From a virus (lineage: Duplodnaviria; Heunggongvirae; Uroviricota; Caudoviricetes), in IMG/VR virus record IMGVR_UViG_2671180349_000007: 36,567 nt of DNA, one strand, 5' to 3'. The notes under the pieces were generated by a model. The model did not search any database, had not been told where the DNA came from, and saw only the letters and a list, made by a program, of their open reading frames with translations. Shown piece by piece: positions 12,356 to 36,567 of this stretch. The position numbers and the translations under genes are program-made. Position 1 is the stretch's first letter, and the number at the start of each line of letters is the position of its first letter.

Positions 12356-12421
12356 ATTGCTCTAATAATTCCATATTTTTAAAACGTGATGTACACTCAT
12401 CACGTTTTTTATTAGAGCAAT
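12356..12421. promoter_or_regulatory. bivalent C1 operator pair enclosing a terminator hairpin
   Basis: ATTGCTCTAATAATT at 12356-12372 and its inverted partner ATTAGAGCAAT at 12405-12421 flank the hairpin aaaacgtgatg-tacact-catcacgtttt. Confidence 0.6.
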
Positions 12422-12655: not shown

Positions 12656-13918
12656 ATGAGCACTTCAGCACAAAACCAATCAATCGAAAATGTATCTATC
12701 CCTGACGTCCTGAATGCCGGTATCCCGGCCATTATCCAGAACATCCGGGCCGCGCAACGCCGCGTTAGTTGTGATGACCTCACAGCACGTTTTTTTGATA
12801 ATGCGGTTCAGTCAGCGGAGATGCTTCACGCACAGCTTATTGATGTTTATAACGCAGAAGCTGATAGCCATAACTCCATGGTAGATGCAGCTGAAAATAT
12901 GCAGTTGGATCTCGGTCTGAAGGGTAAAGAAATTGAAGAGCTTCAGCTGGAAATTGAACATTTGAAACGCCAGCAACAGGACGCGATCGACGATGCGACG
13001 CATGACGCCAACCAGCGTGCTGATAATGCCGAACGTATAAGCATTGAGCTGGAAACAAAACTCAATGAAATGACCACGATGGTTGAACTGCGGAACTCAC
13101 AGATTTCAACGCTAAAATCTCAATATAAAGAGATCATGAAACTTGATCCTTTTAACCTTGAGAAACGCTATAACAAAGCTAAAAGCGAGCGACAGGAACT
13201 GCGTAAGCAGGTCGCCGACCTTAACCAACAGCTCAAAAAAACTATTAAAGATGCAAGCGAAGCGCGCGTGGCATTTGCTAATAAAAAAGCAGAGGTTACC
13301 GCGCTGGTTAATGAGAATGCCAAATTTGCGACGCTCAAGAAGGAAATGTATGGCATTACTGAGCGCCGTTTCCCTGCAAGCAAACTTCATCCGACGTTAG
13401 GGCAAATCTCCTTCTTCCCGCGCCTCCTGGCTTATGGGATCTCATCGCCTAAAGAGTTCAATAACGAGCGTCCTTATATCGTTTCTAAGCTGGACTTTGC
13501 TTATCAGTTCTGCTGCGACATGGGCTATGCCATTGATATCCGGATCAACGAATGGTTGATGCCAAACTTCCAGCCGTTGGCCATTTTCCGCGAGTTCCAG
13601 CCGGAAGGTTGGGTAGAGTTCTTCCATGAATTGATCTGTAAAGAGATGGAAAGCCGCCGCCCGGAACTGGTCCGTCGAGTTGAGTGGGCGCAAGAGGTTA
13701 TGTTGGCAGAGGCAGAGCTGCCGTTCGAATCGGAATTTATTGATGATCTGGGAGCTAAAGGGCTGCATACCCTGTTTGATGTGGTTACCCGCCGTCATGA
13801 GCAGTTGGTTGTCGAATTGGGTTTAGAGGAAACAGCGGCAAGAAGACTTCTCGATGTTTGCTATGCACGTAGCGATGCATGGGAAAAAGAGAACGGCGGC
13901 ACTATTTACGTTCGCTGA
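12656..13918 (+). CDS. coiled-coil protein with C-terminal globular domain (420 aa)
   Basis: Residues about 60-240 are E/K/Q/L-rich heptad-like; Cys/Trp-containing C-terminal domain; no recognised family. Confidence 0.6.
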   Translation: MSTSAQNQSIENVSIPDVLNAGIPAIIQNIRAAQRRVSCDDLTARFFDNAVQSAEMLHAQLIDVYNAEADSHNSMVDAAENMQLDLGLKGKEIEELQLEIEHLKRQQQDAIDDATHDANQRADNAERISIELETKLNEMTTMVELRNSQISTLKSQYKEIMKLDPFNLEKRYNKAKSERQELRKQVADLNQQLKKTIKDASEARVAFANKKAEVTALVNENAKFATLKKEMYGITERRFPASKLHPTLGQISFFPRLLAYGISSPKEFNNERPYIVSKLDFAYQFCCDMGYAIDIRINEWLMPNFQPLAIFREFQPEGWVEFFHELICKEMESRRPELVRRVEWAQEVMLAEAELPFESEFIDDLGAKGLHTLFDVVTRRHEQLVVELGLEETAARRLLDVCYARSDAWEKENGGTIYVR

Positions 13919-13937
13919 CAGTTACAGTGTCACTTTT

Positions 13938-13971
13938 AATGCTGGTGGAGTGCGCCCACCAGCATTTTTTT
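13938..13971 (+). terminator. rho-independent terminator
   Basis: aatgctggtgg-agtgcgc-ccaccagcatt followed by a T-run; the stem contains a Chi octamer GCTGGTGG. Confidence 0.65.
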
Positions 13972-13990
13972 CGTCCAATGAGGAGGGCAT

Positions 13991-14497
13991 TTGAGTATTT
14001 TCAATAAACACGCACACCAGGAACGTCCGTACATCGTCATAGTAGATATTGATGGGACGATATCAGAGGCAACGGAAGACAGGCTGCATTTACTTCCACC
14101 ACCTGGCAAAGGTGCATTAACAGAGCACTGGAACGAGTTTAACCTTGCCTGTGACACTGATGCTCCCATCACTCCAGTTATTGATATGGTGCGCCAGTTG
14201 TCCGGCATTTACACCCTCTGGTTTGTAACCGGGCGCTGTGAGATAGCCAGGGATAAAACACGAGCCTGGTTGCGTAAGCACGTAACAAATGGGGCTGAGC
14301 CTTTGCTATCTATGCGTCCTGCCACCGATGACAGAAATGACGGTCCAGCAAAGATTGATCTCCTGAAGAAAATTGGTCTAAGTAAAATTGCGTTCGCGCT
14401 GGAAGATAAGATTGAAGTGGCGCGTGTTTTCAGGAGTCACGGCGTACTTACGTTAATGGTCAGGGAGTATGAAAACGCGCTTCTTCATCAACAATAA
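13991..14497 (+). CDS. HAD-superfamily phosphatase-like protein
   Basis: TTG start with GAGGAGGG RBS; motif I VIVDIDGT, then FVTGR and DKTRAW elements. Confidence 0.55.
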   Translation: MSIFNKHAHQERPYIVIVDIDGTISEATEDRLHLLPPPGKGALTEHWNEFNLACDTDAPITPVIDMVRQLSGIYTLWFVTGRCEIARDKTRAWLRKHVTNGAEPLLSMRPATDDRNDGPAKIDLLKKIGLSKIAFALEDKIEVARVFRSHGVLTLMVREYENALLHQQ

Positions 14498-14513
14498 TTG
14501 CTCTAATAAATCT
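14497..14513 (+). promoter_or_regulatory. C1 operator
   Basis: ATTGCTCTAATAAATCT, 16/17 match to consensus, overlapping the HAD stop codon. Confidence 0.65.
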
Positions 14514-23348: not shown

Positions 23349-24542
23349 GTGACCTGGGACGATCACAAGAAGAATTTTGCTCGCCTGGCGCGAGATGGTG
23401 GTTACACCATCGCACAGTATGCCGCCGAGTTTAATCTTAACCCTAATACCGCACGTCGTTATCTCCGTGCCTTCAAAGAAGACACTAGGACTGCGGACAG
23501 CCGCAAGCCAAATAAGCCAGTCAGGAAGCCACTAAAAAGCATGATCATTGATCACTCTAATGATCAACATGCAGGTGATCATATTGCGGCTGAAATAGCG
23601 GAAAAACAGAGAGTTAATGCCGTTGTCAGTGCCGCAGTCGAGAATGCGAAGCGCCAAAATAAGCGCATAAATGATCGTTCAGATGATCATGACGTGATCA
23701 CCCGCGCCCACCGGACCTTACGTGATCGCCTGGAACGCGACACCCTGGATGATGATGGTGAACGCTTTGAATTCGAAGCTGGCGATTACCTGATAGATAA
23801 CGTTGAAGCGCGGAAGGCCGCGCGCGCTATGTTGCGTCGGTCCGGGGCCGATGTTCTGGAAACCACTCTTCTTGAAAAGTCTCTTTCTCATCTCCTTATG
23901 CTGGAGAACGCCAGGGATACGTGTATTCGCCTGGTGCAGGAAATGCGCGATCAGCAAAAAGACGATGATGAAGGTACTCCGCCTGAATACCGTATCGCGA
24001 GCATGCTAAACAGCTGTTCCGCGCAGATAAGCAGCCTGATCAACACCATTTACAGCATCCGGAATAACTATCGAAAAGAAAGCCGGGAGGCGGAAAAGCA
24101 CGCTTTGTCTATGGGGCAAGCTGGCATTGTTAAGCTGGCATACGAACGAAAGCGTGAAAATAACTGGTCAGTGCTGGAAGCAGCTGAATTCATCGAGGCG
24201 CATGGTGGGAAAGTTCCGCCCCTGATGCTGGAGCAAATCAAAGCCGATCTGCGTGCTCCTAAGACCAATACTGATGATGAGGAAAGGCAAACAGCCGTCG
24301 GTGGCCCTTCTCTTGAAGATCTGGATAAAGTTGCGCGAGAACGGGCCGCCAACCGCCGCGCCGATGCCGCATTGTGGATTGAGCAGCGTAGGGAAGAAAT
24401 CGCCGATATCGTTGATACAGGCGGTTATGGAGATGTTGATACTGAAGGTGTATCAAACGACCCATGGCTGGAACAAGACCTGGACGAAGACGAGGAGGAA
24501 GACGAAGAAGTTACCCGCAAGCTATACGGGGATGATGATTAA
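23349..24542 (+). CDS. pacA: pacase subunit PacA
   Basis: 397-aa protein starting [18 protein letters not shown] (GTG start); contains the pac site; acidic C-terminal tail. Confidence 0.9.
23542..23700. other. pac packaging site
   Basis: Four TGATCA hexamers (23542-23581) and three TGATC(A/G) hexamers (23672-23700) flanking the cleavage region, inside pacA; seven Dam sites. Confidence 0.85.
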
Positions 24543-26385: not shown

Positions 26386-26607
26386 ATGGCTACTATCCCT
26401 ACCCCAACTCATCCTGAATTTATCTGGCGCTTTTACTCCTGCCAGAAACGTCACTATCACTTCGTTATTGCACCGACAGAAGATGAGGCTCGCTCTCAGC
26501 TTCCTGATGCACCCTGTATTTTCTCCGCCCGTTTTTCTACTGATTCGCGCAATTCTCTCAGTTACTGGTGCCTCCCTGTTAACACTTCTGCTCAGGAGGG
26601 ACTATGA
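26386..26607 (+). CDS. icd: Icd-like protein (73 aa)
   Basis: AAGGAGG RBS; 73-aa ORF overlapping the ant start (ATGA), the P1 ImmI arrangement. Confidence 0.55.
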   Translation: MATIPTPTHPEFIWRFYSCQKRHYHFVIAPTEDEARSQLPDAPCIFSARFSTDSRNSLSYWCLPVNTSAQEGL

Positions 26608-27659
26608 GAACGTCATTAGTCACCCGTGAAGAGATGATCGAGGCAATTGAACAGCACACTGCCTGTATCAGTACCAGGGATATACCGGGCGTTATTGCCA
26701 ACTACTTCATGATCACCAAACAACTTTACCGGAGAAAGGACAAGAACGCTGTTCACCGCATTCTGTTGTCTGATATCCGCGAATACCTGCTCGAACAGGG
26801 GCATCTGAATTACGCAACCGTCGCAGCCGAAACACGCAAGGAGGCACACAGAATGAAAGCAAGCAAACCAGATGTTGTCGTTACAAAGCCTTTGACAGCA
26901 ACCACACCAGCACCGGTCATGGATGCTATCCCCAACACCGGAGACACAATCGACAGCCAGACGCTGTTAAAGATGGTTAATGAGGCGCGTAAGTTATGTG
27001 GGGAACCATTAGTAAGAAATAATAAGTTTATTGAGAAGGTTGTGGATGAGCTTGAAGGTGAGACCTACACAAAAAGTGTAGGTCGCAAAAATGGTGCAAA
27101 CATAGACATTATCACCATGACTTTCAAACAAGCCCTGCGAGTCGCCGCGCGCGAGTCAAAAGCGGTCCGCCGTTCGCTGATCGACAAGCTGGAGGAGTTG
27201 CAGCAGGTTAGCGCTGCTTCTCCAGCGATCCCCCAAACATTGCCCGAAGCTCTGCGCCTGGCTGCCGAACTGGCTGAACAAAAGCAACTTCTGGAACAGA
27301 AAGCCCACCAGCTAAATCAGCAGCTGGTGGCCGCAGCCCCCAAAGTCGATTTTGCCGACCGGGTATCAGTGGCTAAGGGGATCCTGATTGGAAATTTTGC
27401 AAAGGTTGTTGGACTTAAGCAAAACGCGCTGTTTGCCTGGTTACGGGAGAACGGCATCCTGATTGCGTCCGGCGGACGTAAAAATGTGCCATTCCAGCAG
27501 TACATCAACGCCGGGTATTTCACTGTGAAAGAAGTGGTGCTAGATGATGAAGATGGCTACCAGATACGGCTGACGCCTCAATTAACGGGGAAAGGCCAGC
27601 AGTGGTTGACGCGTAAGCTGCTCGATGCTGGCTTGTTAAAACCGGTGGCGGCTGAATAA
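26604..27659 (+). CDS. ant: antirepressor Ant, KilAC-type C-terminal domain
   Basis: 351-aa ORF coupled to icd; C-terminal ILIGNFAKVVGLKQNALFAWLRENGIL region typical of phage antirepressors. Confidence 0.7.
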   Translation: MRTSLVTREEMIEAIEQHTACISTRDIPGVIANYFMITKQLYRRKDKNAVHRILLSDIREYLLEQGHLNYATVAAETRKEAHRMKASKPDVVVTKPLTATTPAPVMDAIPNTGDTIDSQTLLKMVNEARKLCGEPLVRNNKFIEKVVDELEGETYTKSVGRKNGANIDIITMTFKQALRVAARESKAVRRSLIDKLEELQQVSAASPAIPQTLPEALRLAAELAEQKQLLEQKAHQLNQQLVAAAPKVDFADRVSVAKGILIGNFAKVVGLKQNALFAWLRENGILIASGGRKNVPFQQYINAGYFTVKEVVLDDEDGYQIRLTPQLTGKGQQWLTRKLLDAGLLKPVAAE

Positions 27660-29101: not shown

Positions 29102-29118
29102 TAATTTATTAGAGCAAT
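29102..29118 (-). promoter_or_regulatory. C1 operator upstream of coi (Op99 cluster)
   Basis: TAATTTATTAGAGCAAT, reverse complement of the consensus. Confidence 0.6.
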
Positions 29119-29184
29119 TGTCAAACAACTATGAAAAACAATCCAGTTTTTAGCTGGTGGAGTGGGATTTTTCTCTCAAAATTT

Positions 29185-29244: not shown

Positions 29245-29278
29245 ATAACTTCGTATAGCATACATTATACGAAGTTAT
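29245..29278. other. loxP recombination site
   Basis: Exact 34-bp ATAACTTCGTATA-GCATACAT-TATACGAAGTTAT. Confidence 0.98.
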
Positions 29279-29349
29279 CTTAAGGGTTATTGAACATGAT
29301 CAATTTACCTGTAAATCCATACAGTTCAATACCTTATCAGGTCAAATAG

Positions 29350-31735: not shown

Positions 31736-32689
31736 TCATTCAGCCGCCACCGGTTTTAACAAGCCAGCATCGAGCAGTTTACGCGTCAACCACTGTTGGC
31801 CTTTCCCCGTTAATTGAGGCGTCAGCCGTATCTGATAGCCATCTTCATCATCCAGCACCACTTCTTTCACTGTGAAATATCCGGCGTTTATGTACTGCTG
31901 AAACGGTACATTTTTACGTCCGCCGGACGCAATCAGGATGCCGTTCTCCCGTAACCAGGCAAACAACGCGTTTTGCTTAAGCCCAACAACCTTTGCAAAA
32001 TTTCCAATCAGGATCCCCTTGGCCCCTGATACCCGGTCGGCAAAATCGACTTTAGGGGCGGCGGCCACCAGCTGCTGATTTAGCTGGTGGGCTTTCTGTT
32101 CCAGAAGTTGCTTTTGTTCAGCCAGCTCGGCAGCCAGGCGCAGAGCTTCGGGGAGTGTTTGGGGAATCACTGGAGAAGCAGTGCTAGCCTGCTGCAATTC
32201 CTCCAGTTTGTCGATCAGCGAACGGCGGACCGCTTTTGACTCGCGCGCGGCAACTCTCAGGGCTTGTTTGTAGGTCATGGAGATAGTTTCAGATGTTGTG
32301 TTGTTTAATTTTTGCACTACGAAAATTTCGTAGTACTCACCATCCAGTTCATCCTTAACTCTGGCAATAAAATCATTATTGCGAACTGGTTTTTCGCTAC
32401 ATAATTTCCGCGCTTCATTGACCATCTTTAACAGCGTCTGGCTGTCGATTGTGTCTCCGGTGTTGGGGATAGCATCCATGGCCGTTGCTGGTGTGGTTGC
32501 TGTCAAAGGCTTTGTAACGACAACATCTGGTTTGCTTGCTTTCATTCTGTGTGCCTCCTTGCGTGTTTCGGCTGCGACGGTTGCGTAATTCAGATGCCCC
32601 TGTTCGAGCAGGTATTCGCGAATATCAGACAGCAGGATACGGTGAACCGCGTTCTTGTCCTTTCTCCGGTAAAGTTGTTTGGTGATCAT
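31736..32689 (-). pseudogene. second ant-like antirepressor copy, mosaic, 5'-truncated by transposon insertion
   Basis: 317-aa ORF matching residues 35-351 of the 26604 ant gene except for a divergent central block; its first codon abuts the transposon IR at 32693. Confidence 0.65.
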
Positions 32690-32692
32690 GAA

Positions 32693-32730
32693 GGGCTCCG
32701 TTTGGGAAACGGAAAATATTGTACGTTAAG
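32693..32730. repeat. transposon left 38-bp terminal inverted repeat
   Basis: Perfect inverted match to 36530-36567; the tnpA stop lies inside it, as is typical for the Tn3 family. Confidence 0.8.
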
Positions 32731-35713
32731 ATTGTTTTTTGTACTGGCTAACATCAACTGCTCGCAAAGGACGATACTTCCCTTTTGCCAGCTTCTTATT
32801 GTTTCTCCATATATAGTCTCCTGTCAGATTTATGTGCTCCCAGCCCAGCGGAGACAAGTGTGACAACAGTTGATCATTGATATGTAGTCCCTTCTTTTTC
32901 AGCAGATTAATGGCGTTTTCTATATATACGGTATTCCACAAAGTGATCGCGGCAGTAAGCAGCGTAAGCCCACTGGCGCGGTAACTCTGGTTTTCAAGAC
33001 CACGATCCCTTATTTCTCCCAAACGATGCATGAAGACAGCTCTGGCAAGGGCATTCCGGGCTTCCCCTTTGTTCAGACCTGCCTGAACCCTACGACGAAG
33101 CGCCGGGTCGCGGAACCAGTCCAGCATGAACAGTGTTCGCTCAATGCGACCGATTTCTCTCAACGCCTTAGCAAGGCCATTCTGTTTCGGATAACTGGCC
33201 AATTTTTTCAGCATCAGAGAAGCGGTCACTGTTCCCTGTTTTATTGAGGTCGCCAGCCTCAGAATTTCATTCCAGTGTATTTTTATCTCTTTGAGATTCA
33301 GGGGGGTTGTGGAAATAATTGACTGTAGAGCAGGATAGTTATCAGCTTTACCTTGAATAAACAAACGTTTGTCATGCAGATCCCGGATCCTTGGAGCAAA
33401 AGCGAATCCCAGCAGATGCATTAGTGCAAAAACATGCTCCGTGAAACCTGCTGTATCGGTGTAATGTTCCGTTATTTCAAGGTCACTTTCGTGATACAGA
33501 AGACCATCAAGTACGTGGGTGGAATCACGAACACGGCTGATTACTTTGGTATAAAACGGACTATATTGATCTGAGATATGCGTATAAAACTGCACTCCCG
33601 GTTCCTGACCGTACTTCAAATTAACCTGACCTGCATATCGTCCGTGGCTGCCAACCCTAAAATTCTGACCGTCAGAAGATGAGGTGGAACCGTCTCCCCA
33701 TAACGCAGCCAGCGGTCGTGACTTTTGAGCATTAACCAGTTCTGCCAGTGCAGCAGCGTACGTTTCATCACGGATGTACCATGCTTGTATGTTTTCCAGC
33801 GAAGCCCGTGTGGTTCCCGGACAGGACTCTGCCATTTTTGCCAGCCCCAGATTGATGCCGTCTGCCAGGATAGTGGTTAGTAGTAAACGGTTATCCTGAG
33901 GACGGATTAGCGGATTCTTAAGATGAGTAAAATGTCGCGAGAAGGCAGTCCATCGCTCGACTTCATCAAGTATCTCTGTGATTTTGGGGTGCGGTAGCAT
34001 GTTGTAAATCAGGTCGGCCAGGGGAGAGACTGTTGAAGGAACGCTGTTATCCAGTGGGGTGATCTTTACACCTTTATCTGAAATATCCACATCAGGAAGA
34101 TCCCCTGCGACAGCCATTGCGTTAACTTCCTCCAGACGGGAGGCCAGTAGAGTCAGTCTGGCATTAAGATAAGCCCCACATTCTGTGCCAACAGGTAAAT
34201 TTAACAGGTTATTATTTAATAACTTTTCGAAATCATCGTTAGGCATAAGATAATCATCAAAGTTTTTGTAGCGCCGGGAGCCCCTGACCCAGATATCACC
34301 CGCCCGCAGCGCCTCCTTTAGCTCATTCATTGCGCAAATTTCATAGTATTGTCGGTCAATGCCTGAGGGAGTGATCACCATCTTTCTCCAGCTCTCAGGA
34401 ATGAAATCCAGTGGTGCCGATGCAGGAACCTTTCGTAGCTGTTTACGGTACATATCACGAATAGTTTCAAGGGCATCATTAAGCGGCAAAGCTGCCGAAG
34501 TGGCTCTCAGTTGCAGGGCCGATAGAAAACGAAAAGAATATTTGCGCAATGTACTGAATTTTTCGGTAATAAGATGAAGCGGCTCAAAATTATCCTTACG
34601 TGCAAGAAGCTTTGTTTCCTCCAGACTGGCGACAAAATCGTCCCACGGTAACACTCGTTCAATAGCAGACAGAGGATCTTCGCCTGAGTTGCGTGCATCC
34701 AGGATAGCCTGGCCAACAGAAACATACTGACGTAACTTTTGCTGTATCAACTTGCCCGTTTTCTGAAGACGCTCGGCCTGCTGATGTTTTGCCCGACTGA
34801 ACATGCTGCCCAGAATACGCTCATGCAGTTCTATAATTTCATCAATGATTGTGGCTCTGACCTCAGTCAGTACACAGACCATCGTTGCGTATCGACGAGC
34901 AGGGGAAAAATCAGCCAGATCGCGACTGCTCATTTTGCGGCCCTCACGCGCGAGTTTCAGCAATCGGTTCTGGTGAACGGTTCTCTCCACTCCTTCCGGC
35001 AGCGCCAGATCTTCAATAGCGTTAAGGCGGTCAATGTGTTGCAGGACATTCTTTCCATTGATTTTCCCCGGAGGTTGAAGCAGCCACGTCAAACGGGATA
35101 TTTGTTTTTCATTTGTCACCAACAGGGCATCAAGCGCAGATTTATGCGTGATATCAAGGTGCGCATTCAGCGTTGTATAAACTGTTTTATCACCCAGTGT
35201 CATTGCTTCAGCACAGGTACGTTCCAGAACATCAATGCCAGGAATAATAATTCGCTGTTGATGCAGGTACTTCAATAACTCCTCTGCGATAAGTATGCCT
35301 CTGTCCGTTCTGGTAGACAGAGGAAGCAGATGCCGGATACATTCTTTCTGAAGCGCACCGTTAAAGGCTTTCAGTTCAAGATATCGATAAAGTTCCTGCA
35401 TATGCTCACGTCTGGTGGTATCACGACCGGAAACGTATTCCTGCCAAAGCTCTGCTGATAATTTAAGTCTGGCACTAATGATTTTTAGCAATTTTGCGGG
35501 TGGGGATGATTTTTTATCCGGAGCAAACCCAATACTTTTCAGATAACAGAGAAGAACGGCAAAACCAAACCGGCTGGCAGGTTTACGGTGAACATTGATA
35601 ATTGCCAGATCCTGTTCACTGAAATACGTCATTCGAGTTAGTGTTAACTCATCGTCTGGTAATGCCAGTAATGATTCTTTTTCCGACTGCGAAAGAATCT
35701 GCCTCCTTGCCAT
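32726..35713 (-). CDS. tnpA: Tn3-family DDE transposase TnpA
   Basis: 995-aa protein with conserved Tn3-family blocks (HYTDTAGFTEHVFALMHLLGF, ILRLATSIKQGTVTASLMLKKL, GLNKGEARNALARAVF). Confidence 0.95.
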   Translation of the reverse strand: MARRQILSQSEKESLLALPDDELTLTRMTYFSEQDLAIINVHRKPASRFGFAVLLCYLKSIGFAPDKKSSPPAKLLKIISARLKLSAELWQEYVSGRDTTRREHMQELYRYLELKAFNGALQKECIRHLLPLSTRTDRGILIAEELLKYLHQQRIIIPGIDVLERTCAEAMTLGDKTVYTTLNAHLDITHKSALDALLVTNEKQISRLTWLLQPPGKINGKNVLQHIDRLNAIEDLALPEGVERTVHQNRLLKLAREGRKMSSRDLADFSPARRYATMVCVLTEVRATIIDEIIELHERILGSMFSRAKHQQAERLQKTGKLIQQKLRQYVSVGQAILDARNSGEDPLSAIERVLPWDDFVASLEETKLLARKDNFEPLHLITEKFSTLRKYSFRFLSALQLRATSAALPLNDALETIRDMYRKQLRKVPASAPLDFIPESWRKMVITPSGIDRQYYEICAMNELKEALRAGDIWVRGSRRYKNFDDYLMPNDDFEKLLNNNLLNLPVGTECGAYLNARLTLLASRLEEVNAMAVAGDLPDVDISDKGVKITPLDNSVPSTVSPLADLIYNMLPHPKITEILDEVERWTAFSRHFTHLKNPLIRPQDNRLLLTTILADGINLGLAKMAESCPGTTRASLENIQAWYIRDETYAAALAELVNAQKSRPLAALWGDGSTSSSDGQNFRVGSHGRYAGQVNLKYGQEPGVQFYTHISDQYSPFYTKVISRVRDSTHVLDGLLYHESDLEITEHYTDTAGFTEHVFALMHLLGFAFAPRIRDLHDKRLFIQGKADNYPALQSIISTTPLNLKEIKIHWNEILRLATSIKQGTVTASLMLKKLASYPKQNGLAKALREIGRIERTLFMLDWFRDPALRRRVQAGLNKGEARNALARAVFMHRLGEIRDRGLENQSYRASGLTLLTAAITLWNTVYIENAINLLKKKGLHINDQLLSHLSPLGWEHINLTGDYIWRNNKKLAKGKYRPLRAVDVSQYKKQS

Positions 35714-35763
35714 ATAGCCTTCCTTGTAAATTATTTAGTGCGTTATTTTTGATGAAAAAGTTA

Positions 35764-35870
35764 TTGCATAAGGGTATACCCTTATGCAATAGACAAAACG
35801 TGACGGCACTCCAATAATGACATAACCTATATGCGATAGAATAAATGCAATAATCTAAACGCGATAGCGT
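35764..35870. promoter_or_regulatory. putative res site
   Basis: Perfect 26-bp palindrome TTGCATAAGGG-TATA-CCCTTATGCAA plus downstream GCGATAG repeats between divergent tnpA and tnpR. Confidence 0.5.
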
Positions 35871-35879
35871 GGTGGAAAA

Positions 35880-36521
35880 ATGTTTATCAGAGCTTATTTA
35901 AGGGCATCGACGGAAGATCAGTTCGCCGATCGGGCAAAAGAGATGCTGGAGCAGTTCGTTCAGGAGCGGGGGCATAAAATCGCCAGCTACTACCGGGAGA
36001 ACATCAGCGGCACAAAACTAGACCGCCCGGAACTGGGACGCTTACTGATAGACAGTCATCGCAATGATATCTTGCTGGTCGAGCAGATAGACCGCCTGAC
36101 CCGTCTCAGCAACAGTGACTGGATAACGCTGAAAAAGCAGATAGAACAACACGAGTTGCGGATTGTCAGTCTTGATGTGCCCACATCATGGCAGGCTCTG
36201 TCAGATAAAGATCCTTCGCAAGCGGACCCGATCACCCGCACAGTAATAACCGCAATAAATAATATGCTTATCGACCTGATGGCTGCAATGTCGCATAAAG
36301 ACTGGCTGAGTCGTCGTCAACGACAAAAACAGGGAATTGAACGTGCCCATACTTTAGGTAAGTATCGGGGCAAACAGGCAGATCGGGAACGACATCAGAA
36401 AGTAATGTACTACCGGCAGATCAAGAAACTGAGCATCCGTGAAACGGCGGAGGTGACAGGCTATAGTACTTCCCAAGTTTGTCGCATTCAGGCGCTCTAT
36501 AAAGAGGTTAAGCCTGATTAA
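35880..36521 (+). CDS. tnpR: serine recombinase/resolvase TnpR
   Basis: N-terminal RAYLRASTEDQ catalytic-serine motif, LLVEQIDRLTRL, and a C-terminal HTH. Confidence 0.85.
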   Translation: MFIRAYLRASTEDQFADRAKEMLEQFVQERGHKIASYYRENISGTKLDRPELGRLLIDSHRNDILLVEQIDRLTRLSNSDWITLKKQIEQHELRIVSLDVPTSWQALSDKDPSQADPITRTVITAINNMLIDLMAAMSHKDWLSRRQRQKQGIERAHTLGKYRGKQADRERHQKVMYYRQIKKLSIRETAEVTGYSTSQVCRIQALYKEVKPD

Positions 36522-36529
36522 AAAATAGC

Positions 36530-36567
36530 CTTAACGTACAATATTTTCCGTTTCCCAAACGGAGCCC
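36530..36567. repeat. transposon right 38-bp terminal inverted repeat
   Basis: Reverse complement of 32693-32730. Confidence 0.8.

Follow-up and report, generated by a model that had tools for sequence, protein, structure and literature searches.

The spacer between pmgS and pap in a stretch of phage DNA of 36,567 nucleotides (hereafter the window, i.e. the whole stretch that was analysed) contains a perfect hairpin followed by a T tract, and each arm of its stem carries a Chi octamer, one in each orientation. This hairpin, at the 3' end of pmgS and within a C1-repressed pmgR-pmgS(-pap) unit, is probably an intrinsic terminator or attenuator with a stem that spells Chi under genome-wide selection for the octamer. 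The Chi-bearing terminator is a real, ordinary instance of the known Chi enrichment of P1, and not a new kind of element. The terminator itself is of a textbook type, previously unannotated in P1-like phage-plasmids, and the value of its description lies mostly in annotation.

To judge from its sequence, the window is a P1-like phage-plasmid (Punavirus). A megablast search of phage records matched it to JL22, SJ46, RCS47, P7 and P1 at 98–99% identity over most of its length, and its nearest relatives are phage-plasmids of E. coli and Salmonella. The gene order along the window is tciA/ban, the tail and pmg genes, pacA/pacB, an ANT-domain gene, c1, coi, loxP and cre; the region beyond cre holds another ANT-domain gene, in inverted orientation, and then a Tn3-family transposon.

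The hairpin, read directly from the sequence, occupies positions 13938–13966 of the + strand and consists of an 11-bp stem, formed by the arms AATGCTGGTGG (13938–13948) and CCACCAGCATT (13956–13966), and a 7-nt loop, agtgcgc. All 11 pairs are perfect, and six of them are G-C. A run of seven T residues (13965–13971, + strand), of which the first two are also the last two bases of the stem, corresponds to the U tract of a terminator. The left arm includes the Chi octamer GCTGGTGG on the + strand (13941–13948), and the right arm includes its complement, CCACCAGC on the + strand (13956–13963), which is Chi on the - strand. In a consensus scan of the 5–24 kb region, the hairpin ranked first among terminator-like sites. 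Its predicted folding energy is -18.1 kcal/mol, and in a fold of the whole 72-nt spacer (z = -2.1) it is retained in the centroid structure. The hairpin starts 19 nt past the TGA stop codon (13916–13918) of pmgS (12656–13918, shtB in P7; open reading frame list, and P1 and P7 annotation), and 24 nt separate its end from the TTG start of pap, which encodes a HAD/PNKP-type phosphatase (13991–14497); hairpin and genes are all on the + strand. The strong Shine-Dalgarno sequence of pap, GAGGAGGG (13980–13987), fits inside these 24 nt.

The site thus combines a GC-rich stem-loop, a 3' U tract and a position behind a gene, on the strand that is transcribed, as expected of an intrinsic terminator. The complementary strand of the hairpin has no T tract, and the signal is therefore one-directional; a bidirectional terminator was rejected on this ground and because both flanking genes are on the + strand. 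An Rfam search of positions 13600–14300 gave no match, and neither a terminator nor a Chi feature is annotated in the pmgS-pap spacer in the records of P1 (AF234172, AF234173, NC_005856) or P7 (AF503408). Our literature search yielded no experimental evidence on transcript 3' ends or termination at this hairpin, and nothing relevant on Chi in terminator stems or on pmgS/pap transcripts. Compared with intrinsic terminators of the E. coli type, which likewise have a GC-rich stem (11 bp here), a loop (7 nt) and a U tract (U7) just past a stop codon on one strand, the present hairpin differs in its surroundings, a unit with repressor operators at its boundaries and the next gene 24 nt away, where a role as attenuator can be predicted.

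This unit starts at a pair of C1 operators upstream of pmgR (12356–12421, the two sites beginning at 12356 and 12405; OpmgRa/b in the P1 annotation), and the next unit starts at a C1 operator directly after pap (14497–14513, + strand; OpmgT/Op88 in P1). The hairpin is therefore not a clean operon end, as it is located inside a unit bounded by C1 operators. No promoter-like site could be found between the hairpin and pap, and hence transcription of pap must pass the hairpin. It appears that pap can be expressed only when transcription passes what is predicted to be a strong terminator, which would imply either that read-through is substantial or that pap is weakly expressed. By its sequence context, the hairpin may act as an attenuator rather than as an operon end. 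We propose that the RNA hairpin and U tract would halt most transcripts after pmgS, and that pap would be reached by read-through alone.

The Chi octamers of the stem belong to a large excess of this word. It is established that enteric RecBCD recognises GCTGGTGG (PMC13181404), and 26 exact copies of it could be identified in the window (18 on the + strand, 8 on the - strand). Dinucleotide shuffling gave an expectation of 0.85 copies and no shuffled sequence contained more than three, while the prediction was about 3 copies from a Markov model of order 3 and about 9 from one of order 5. No other octamer is as frequent in the window, and those that come next overlap Chi. Since Chi contains the common Leu-Val codons CTG-GTG, a further null model was added in which synonymous codons were shuffled so that neither the encoded proteins nor the pooled codon usage changed; 23 Chi octamers are within genes, compared with 2.9 expected and a maximum of 11 in 500 such shuffles. 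Chance as the cause of the Chi excess is thus rejected under the dinucleotide, Markov and synonymous-codon nulls. The octamers of the stem have the properties of enterobacterial Chi sites, i.e. an exact octamer, located on an enteric replicon and over-represented in the genome.

Published work reports 50 Chi octamers in the 94.8 kb of P1, Chi being the most frequent octamer, and also that P1 circularises by recombination between its terminal repeats, for which it depends on RecA and RecBCD of the host (PMC12315714; also PMC10028697). Because the hairpin is identical in P1, both of its octamers belong to this published set of 50. In comparison with the Chi sites of P1, which are the same over-represented and commonest octamer 5'-GCTGGTGG-3', located around pac in a RecA/RecBCD-dependent phage, nothing material differs in the window; the additional detail is that two of the sites form the arms of one hairpin.

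These data bear on several statements of the initial annotation of the window. It had placed Chi in both orientations in the terminator stem, and this is borne out by the two octamers and the perfect 11-bp stem. The other single sites that it cited all exist, at 915, 25424, 29153 and 31034, although two of them had been given one base off (29152 and 31033), and the two orientations are indeed paired in each ant copy, at 27305/27323 and 32065/32083. As a listing it was very incomplete, a several-fold undercount of the 26 sites present. The result that it named as refuting, a Chi frequency no higher than composition predicts, is contradicted by the counts (26 observed against 0.85), and its link to the Chi enrichment of P1 is correct, as the window is P1-like and the enrichment is published (PMC12315714).

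The distribution of Chi was analysed relative to the pac site, a cluster of TGATCA hexamers inside pacA (23542–23700, + strand); P1 is packaged in the direction from pac to lox. The complete relative JL22 has 54 Chi octamers, of which 49 are located within 30 kb of the pac hexamer cluster, with 16 on the + strand and 13 on the - strand in the 30 kb downstream (in the packaging direction), and 15 and 5, respectively, in the 30 kb upstream. In the window, 12 + and 4 - octamers are found to the left of pac, and 6 + and 4 - octamers to its right up to position 32692, while the Tn3-family insert contains none on either strand. The concentration near pac in JL22 implies that the distribution tracks the packaging origin and not the transcription units. 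When orientation is mapped relative to pac-directed packaging, as the initial annotation proposed, the + orientation forms the majority upstream of pac, but the statistical support for this bias is weak (binomial P = 0.04; P = 0.23 in a Fisher test that compares it with the downstream region).

The further suggestion that Chi may bias RecBCD processing near operon ends finds no support in this distribution. Twenty-three of the 26 octamers are within genes, ten of them in the in-frame Leu-Val arrangement, and the three intergenic octamers correspond to the non-coding share of roughly 10%; two of these three are the hairpin arms. A scan for Chi hairpins in the window, JL22 and JK004, which allowed G.U pairs and pairing of 7 out of 8 positions and was too permissive to serve as a test, found no other Chi hairpin with a comparable T tail. 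The one hairpin that has such a tail is itself inside the C1-bounded unit, and placement at operon ends is not supported either.

RecBCD reads Chi on the strand that has its 3' end at the entry point. By this standard orientation rule, the + Chi at 13941–13948 would be read by RecBCD moving from higher to lower coordinates, i.e. arriving from the pac side. The hairpin is located about 9.6 kb upstream of pac, outside the zone of the first few headful ends. The balanced zone downstream of pac would correspond to the headful ends, where RecBCD could enter from both sides, while upstream of pac only RecBCD travelling away from pac would be relevant. P1 packaging series are processive and short, comprising about 4 headfuls (PMC5557969). 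In the stem, the + Chi is in the locally favoured and the - Chi in the minority orientation, which is consistent with, and does not prove, the second copy being a by-product.

We propose the following role for these sites. P1-like genomes are under strong site-level selection for many Chi octamers around pac. RecBCD would enter linear phage DNA after injection or after cutting at pac, and a correctly oriented Chi would switch the enzyme from degradation to loading of RecA, which would protect the DNA and promote recombination between the terminal redundancies to form a circle. The GC-rich stem of the terminator would have come to spell Chi in the P1/P7 lineage, and its + Chi, being in the locally preferred orientation, is most likely one of the selected set. 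The - Chi would follow automatically, since a perfect stem dictates the complement; the site could consequently act on RecBCD arriving from either side, and selection for that ability would be unnecessary.

Comparison with relatives separates the history of the hairpin from that of Chi. P1 and P7 have the hairpin without a single base difference, and 668 of 5426 complete E. coli genomes contain it between pmgS and pap, with 658 of the 671 places being on plasmids. Of 79 P1-like viral contigs, 78 show no change in either arm, and hence none in either octamer. Changes are mostly in the loop (variants agtgcgc, agtgctc, agtgcgtc, attgcgc and agtgcac) and in the flanks, where the T run varies from T6 to T8. 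Only two stem changes occur among the 79 contigs, and both produce G.U pairs, which are tolerated by an RNA helix. One of these, the arm variant GTTGGTGG of contig L063, retains the RNA helix by such a pair and destroys the + Chi.

The Cronobacter phage JK004, whose PmgS is 69% identical, is the sole collinear distant relative found. Its spacer reads GCTGATGGG-ttcgcg-CCCATCGGC-TTTTTTTT, i.e. a strong hairpin followed by T8, with one compensatory change from G-C to A-U and one wobble pair relative to the stem of P1. Neither arm contains Chi, one being a single base off and the other two. All four stem changes seen among relatives preserve pairing (one compensatory, three to G.U), but with one informative outgroup and one compensatory pair the covariation statistics are not significant, and the pattern was equalled in 72 of 500 shuffles. 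Three P1-like plasmids of Salmonella (CP077703, CP053320 and CP146848) were considered as additional outgroups and rejected, as they are non-collinear downstream of pmgS and lack pap, and are therefore uninformative for covariation. The retention of hairpin and T run without Chi in JK004 indicates that the terminator is the conserved feature and Chi a lineage-specific overlay. What fits the aligned sequences best is an ancestral terminator hairpin, with Chi presumably acquired by the stem in the P1/P7 lineage, or lost in JK004.

JK004 has 103 Chi octamers in 93.8 kb, twice the count of its next octamer and about twice the density of P1. Where the window and JK004 can be aligned at Chi sites (about 72–83% nucleotide identity), 10 of 17 Chi octamers (59%) are exactly conserved, compared with 10% of 3385 neighbouring non-Chi octamers (binomial P about 1e-6). 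Chi in this phage family is thus under site-level purifying selection, beyond selection on its number. The Chi pair of the terminator falls among the non-conserved sites in this comparison. For work on phages and RecBCD, the excess beyond the synonymous-codon null, the conservation of Chi positions across about 25% nucleotide divergence and the absence of Chi from the Tn3-family insert may be of modest use.

Four inverted Chi pairs could be identified in the window, at 7946/7960, 13941/13956, 27305/27323 and 32065/32083. The first is a palindrome, GCTGGTGG-actgcg-CCACCAGC (7946–7967), within the homologue of gene 25, on the - strand, where it encodes QLVAQSTS. The third (27305–27330) is located in the first ANT-domain gene and the fourth (32065–32090) in the second, inverted one; since these genes form a 93%-identical inverted repeat, the two pairs are copies and not independent events, leaving three independent loci. 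One alternative to our reading is that the palindromic arrangement itself has been selected, with Chi pairs in hairpins serving as two-way stop or recombination sites for RecBCD, comparable to the paired uptake sequences of Haemophilus and Neisseria. In JL22, the same three inverted pairs within 20 nt are found, where chance would give 0.38 across the Chi-rich 60 kb (P = 0.007), and direct pairs within 20 nt are absent, but the test is post hoc and based on three loci. The number of Chi octamers is twice as high in JK004, where a single inverted pair is found, that of gene 25, against 1.1 expected, and where the terminator has lost, or never had, both octamers while keeping the hairpin. The gene 25 palindrome is maintained in JK004 (37427–37448) with both octamers intact and two changes in the spacer, both synonymous; with 59% of Chi sites conserved between the two, its survival there is no surprise. 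In addition, only one of the pairs is in a terminator, the others being intragenic, and the second copy in the terminator is accounted for by the perfect stem. Chance as the source of pairing is not rejected, unlike for the Chi excess, and pairing is at most weakly enriched and not general in Chi-rich P1-like phages. Selection on the pairs is unlikely.

A further arrangement that could be counted in favour of selected pairing is a quasi-palindrome, TGCTGGTG-gattt-CACCAGCA, at 913–935 in tciB, which includes the Chi at 915 and in which the octamer that ranks second in frequency forms a perfect inverted repeat of 8 bp. The precedent for paired words is documented: in Pasteurellaceae and Neisseria, a short word selected across the genome (USS or DUS) likewise occurs as a complementary pair in terminator stems (PMC1852404). 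Those pairs recur in many terminators, whereas the Chi pair is found in one terminator in about 100 kb, i.e. one in the window, one in JL22 and none in JK004. With a single terminator, and its absence from the Chi-richer JK004, there is no evidence of a systematic association between Chi and terminators. A scan of genome contigs for GCTGGTGG-N3-10-CCACCAGC was uninformative on enterobacteria and terminators, the matches listed being from unrelated high-GC genomes. A more specific proposal by analogy, that the close inverted pairs (three loci in the P1 lineage, one in JK004) would be selected two-way control points for RecBCD and that the terminator stem would fit such a pair into scarce non-coding DNA, appears distinctly improbable. 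The idea of paired Chi would be mildly interesting if general, and the present evidence is not in its favour.

The opposite alternative holds that Chi in the stem is incidental, a GC-rich terminator stem happening to spell the octamer without contributing to RecBCD function. The stem of JK004, one and two bases off Chi, is structurally sound without it, the L063 variant loses the + Chi and keeps its RNA pairing, and the distance to pac puts the site outside the region of the first headful ends. Against this, at an expectation of about 0.85 per window, a given 11-nt stem is very unlikely to contain Chi by chance if the genome-wide pressure does not act there too, and the octamers are invariant in all but one of the 79 relatives. 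Moreover, it is established biochemistry that RecBCD recognises an exact Chi in duplex DNA whatever its context. We therefore regard a purely incidental Chi as quite unlikely.

That the palindrome is not a terminator but acts at the DNA level, as a cruciform or a site bound by protein, or serves as a hairpin in RNA stability or processing, would agree with the lack of a terminator in the richly annotated P1 records and with the need for transcription through the hairpin into pap immediately downstream, but is so improbable that it can be set aside, given a T7/T8 tract that is conserved with the hairpin even in JK004 and confined to one strand, stem substitutions that all preserve pairing as in RNA, with G.U pairs among them (these would not be tolerated in a DNA palindrome), the negative Rfam search, and the lack of further palindromes of this kind, as might be expected of a binding site present in several copies. 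The sequence, structure, position and conservation of the hairpin and the enrichment of Chi are observed directly, and from them we infer that transcription is terminated here and that Chi is active at this site.

Some other features of the window may be mentioned. The Chi at 29153–29160 is about 90 bp from loxP, between C1-operator-like sites at 29102 and 29185, and has the 12-mer GCTGGTGGAGTG in common with the stem and loop of the terminator. The two ANT (KilAC) domain genes (26604–27659 and 31736–32689) are repeated in inverted orientation over 566 nt (93% identity) and 364 nt (91%) and flank c1, coi, loxP (29247–29280) and cre, so that the segment of about 4 kb with the immunity and lox-cre functions could invert by homologous recombination. 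The Tn3-family transposon (32693–36567) truncates the second ANT-domain copy at its 5' end. It is bounded by 57-nt inverted repeats (32693–32749 and 36511–36567), and encodes a Tn3 DDE transposase of 995 residues on the - strand (32726–35713) and a serine resolvase (35880–36521). Its outer inverted repeat is the exact end of the window, and the transposon is devoid of Chi, in contrast to the phage backbone.
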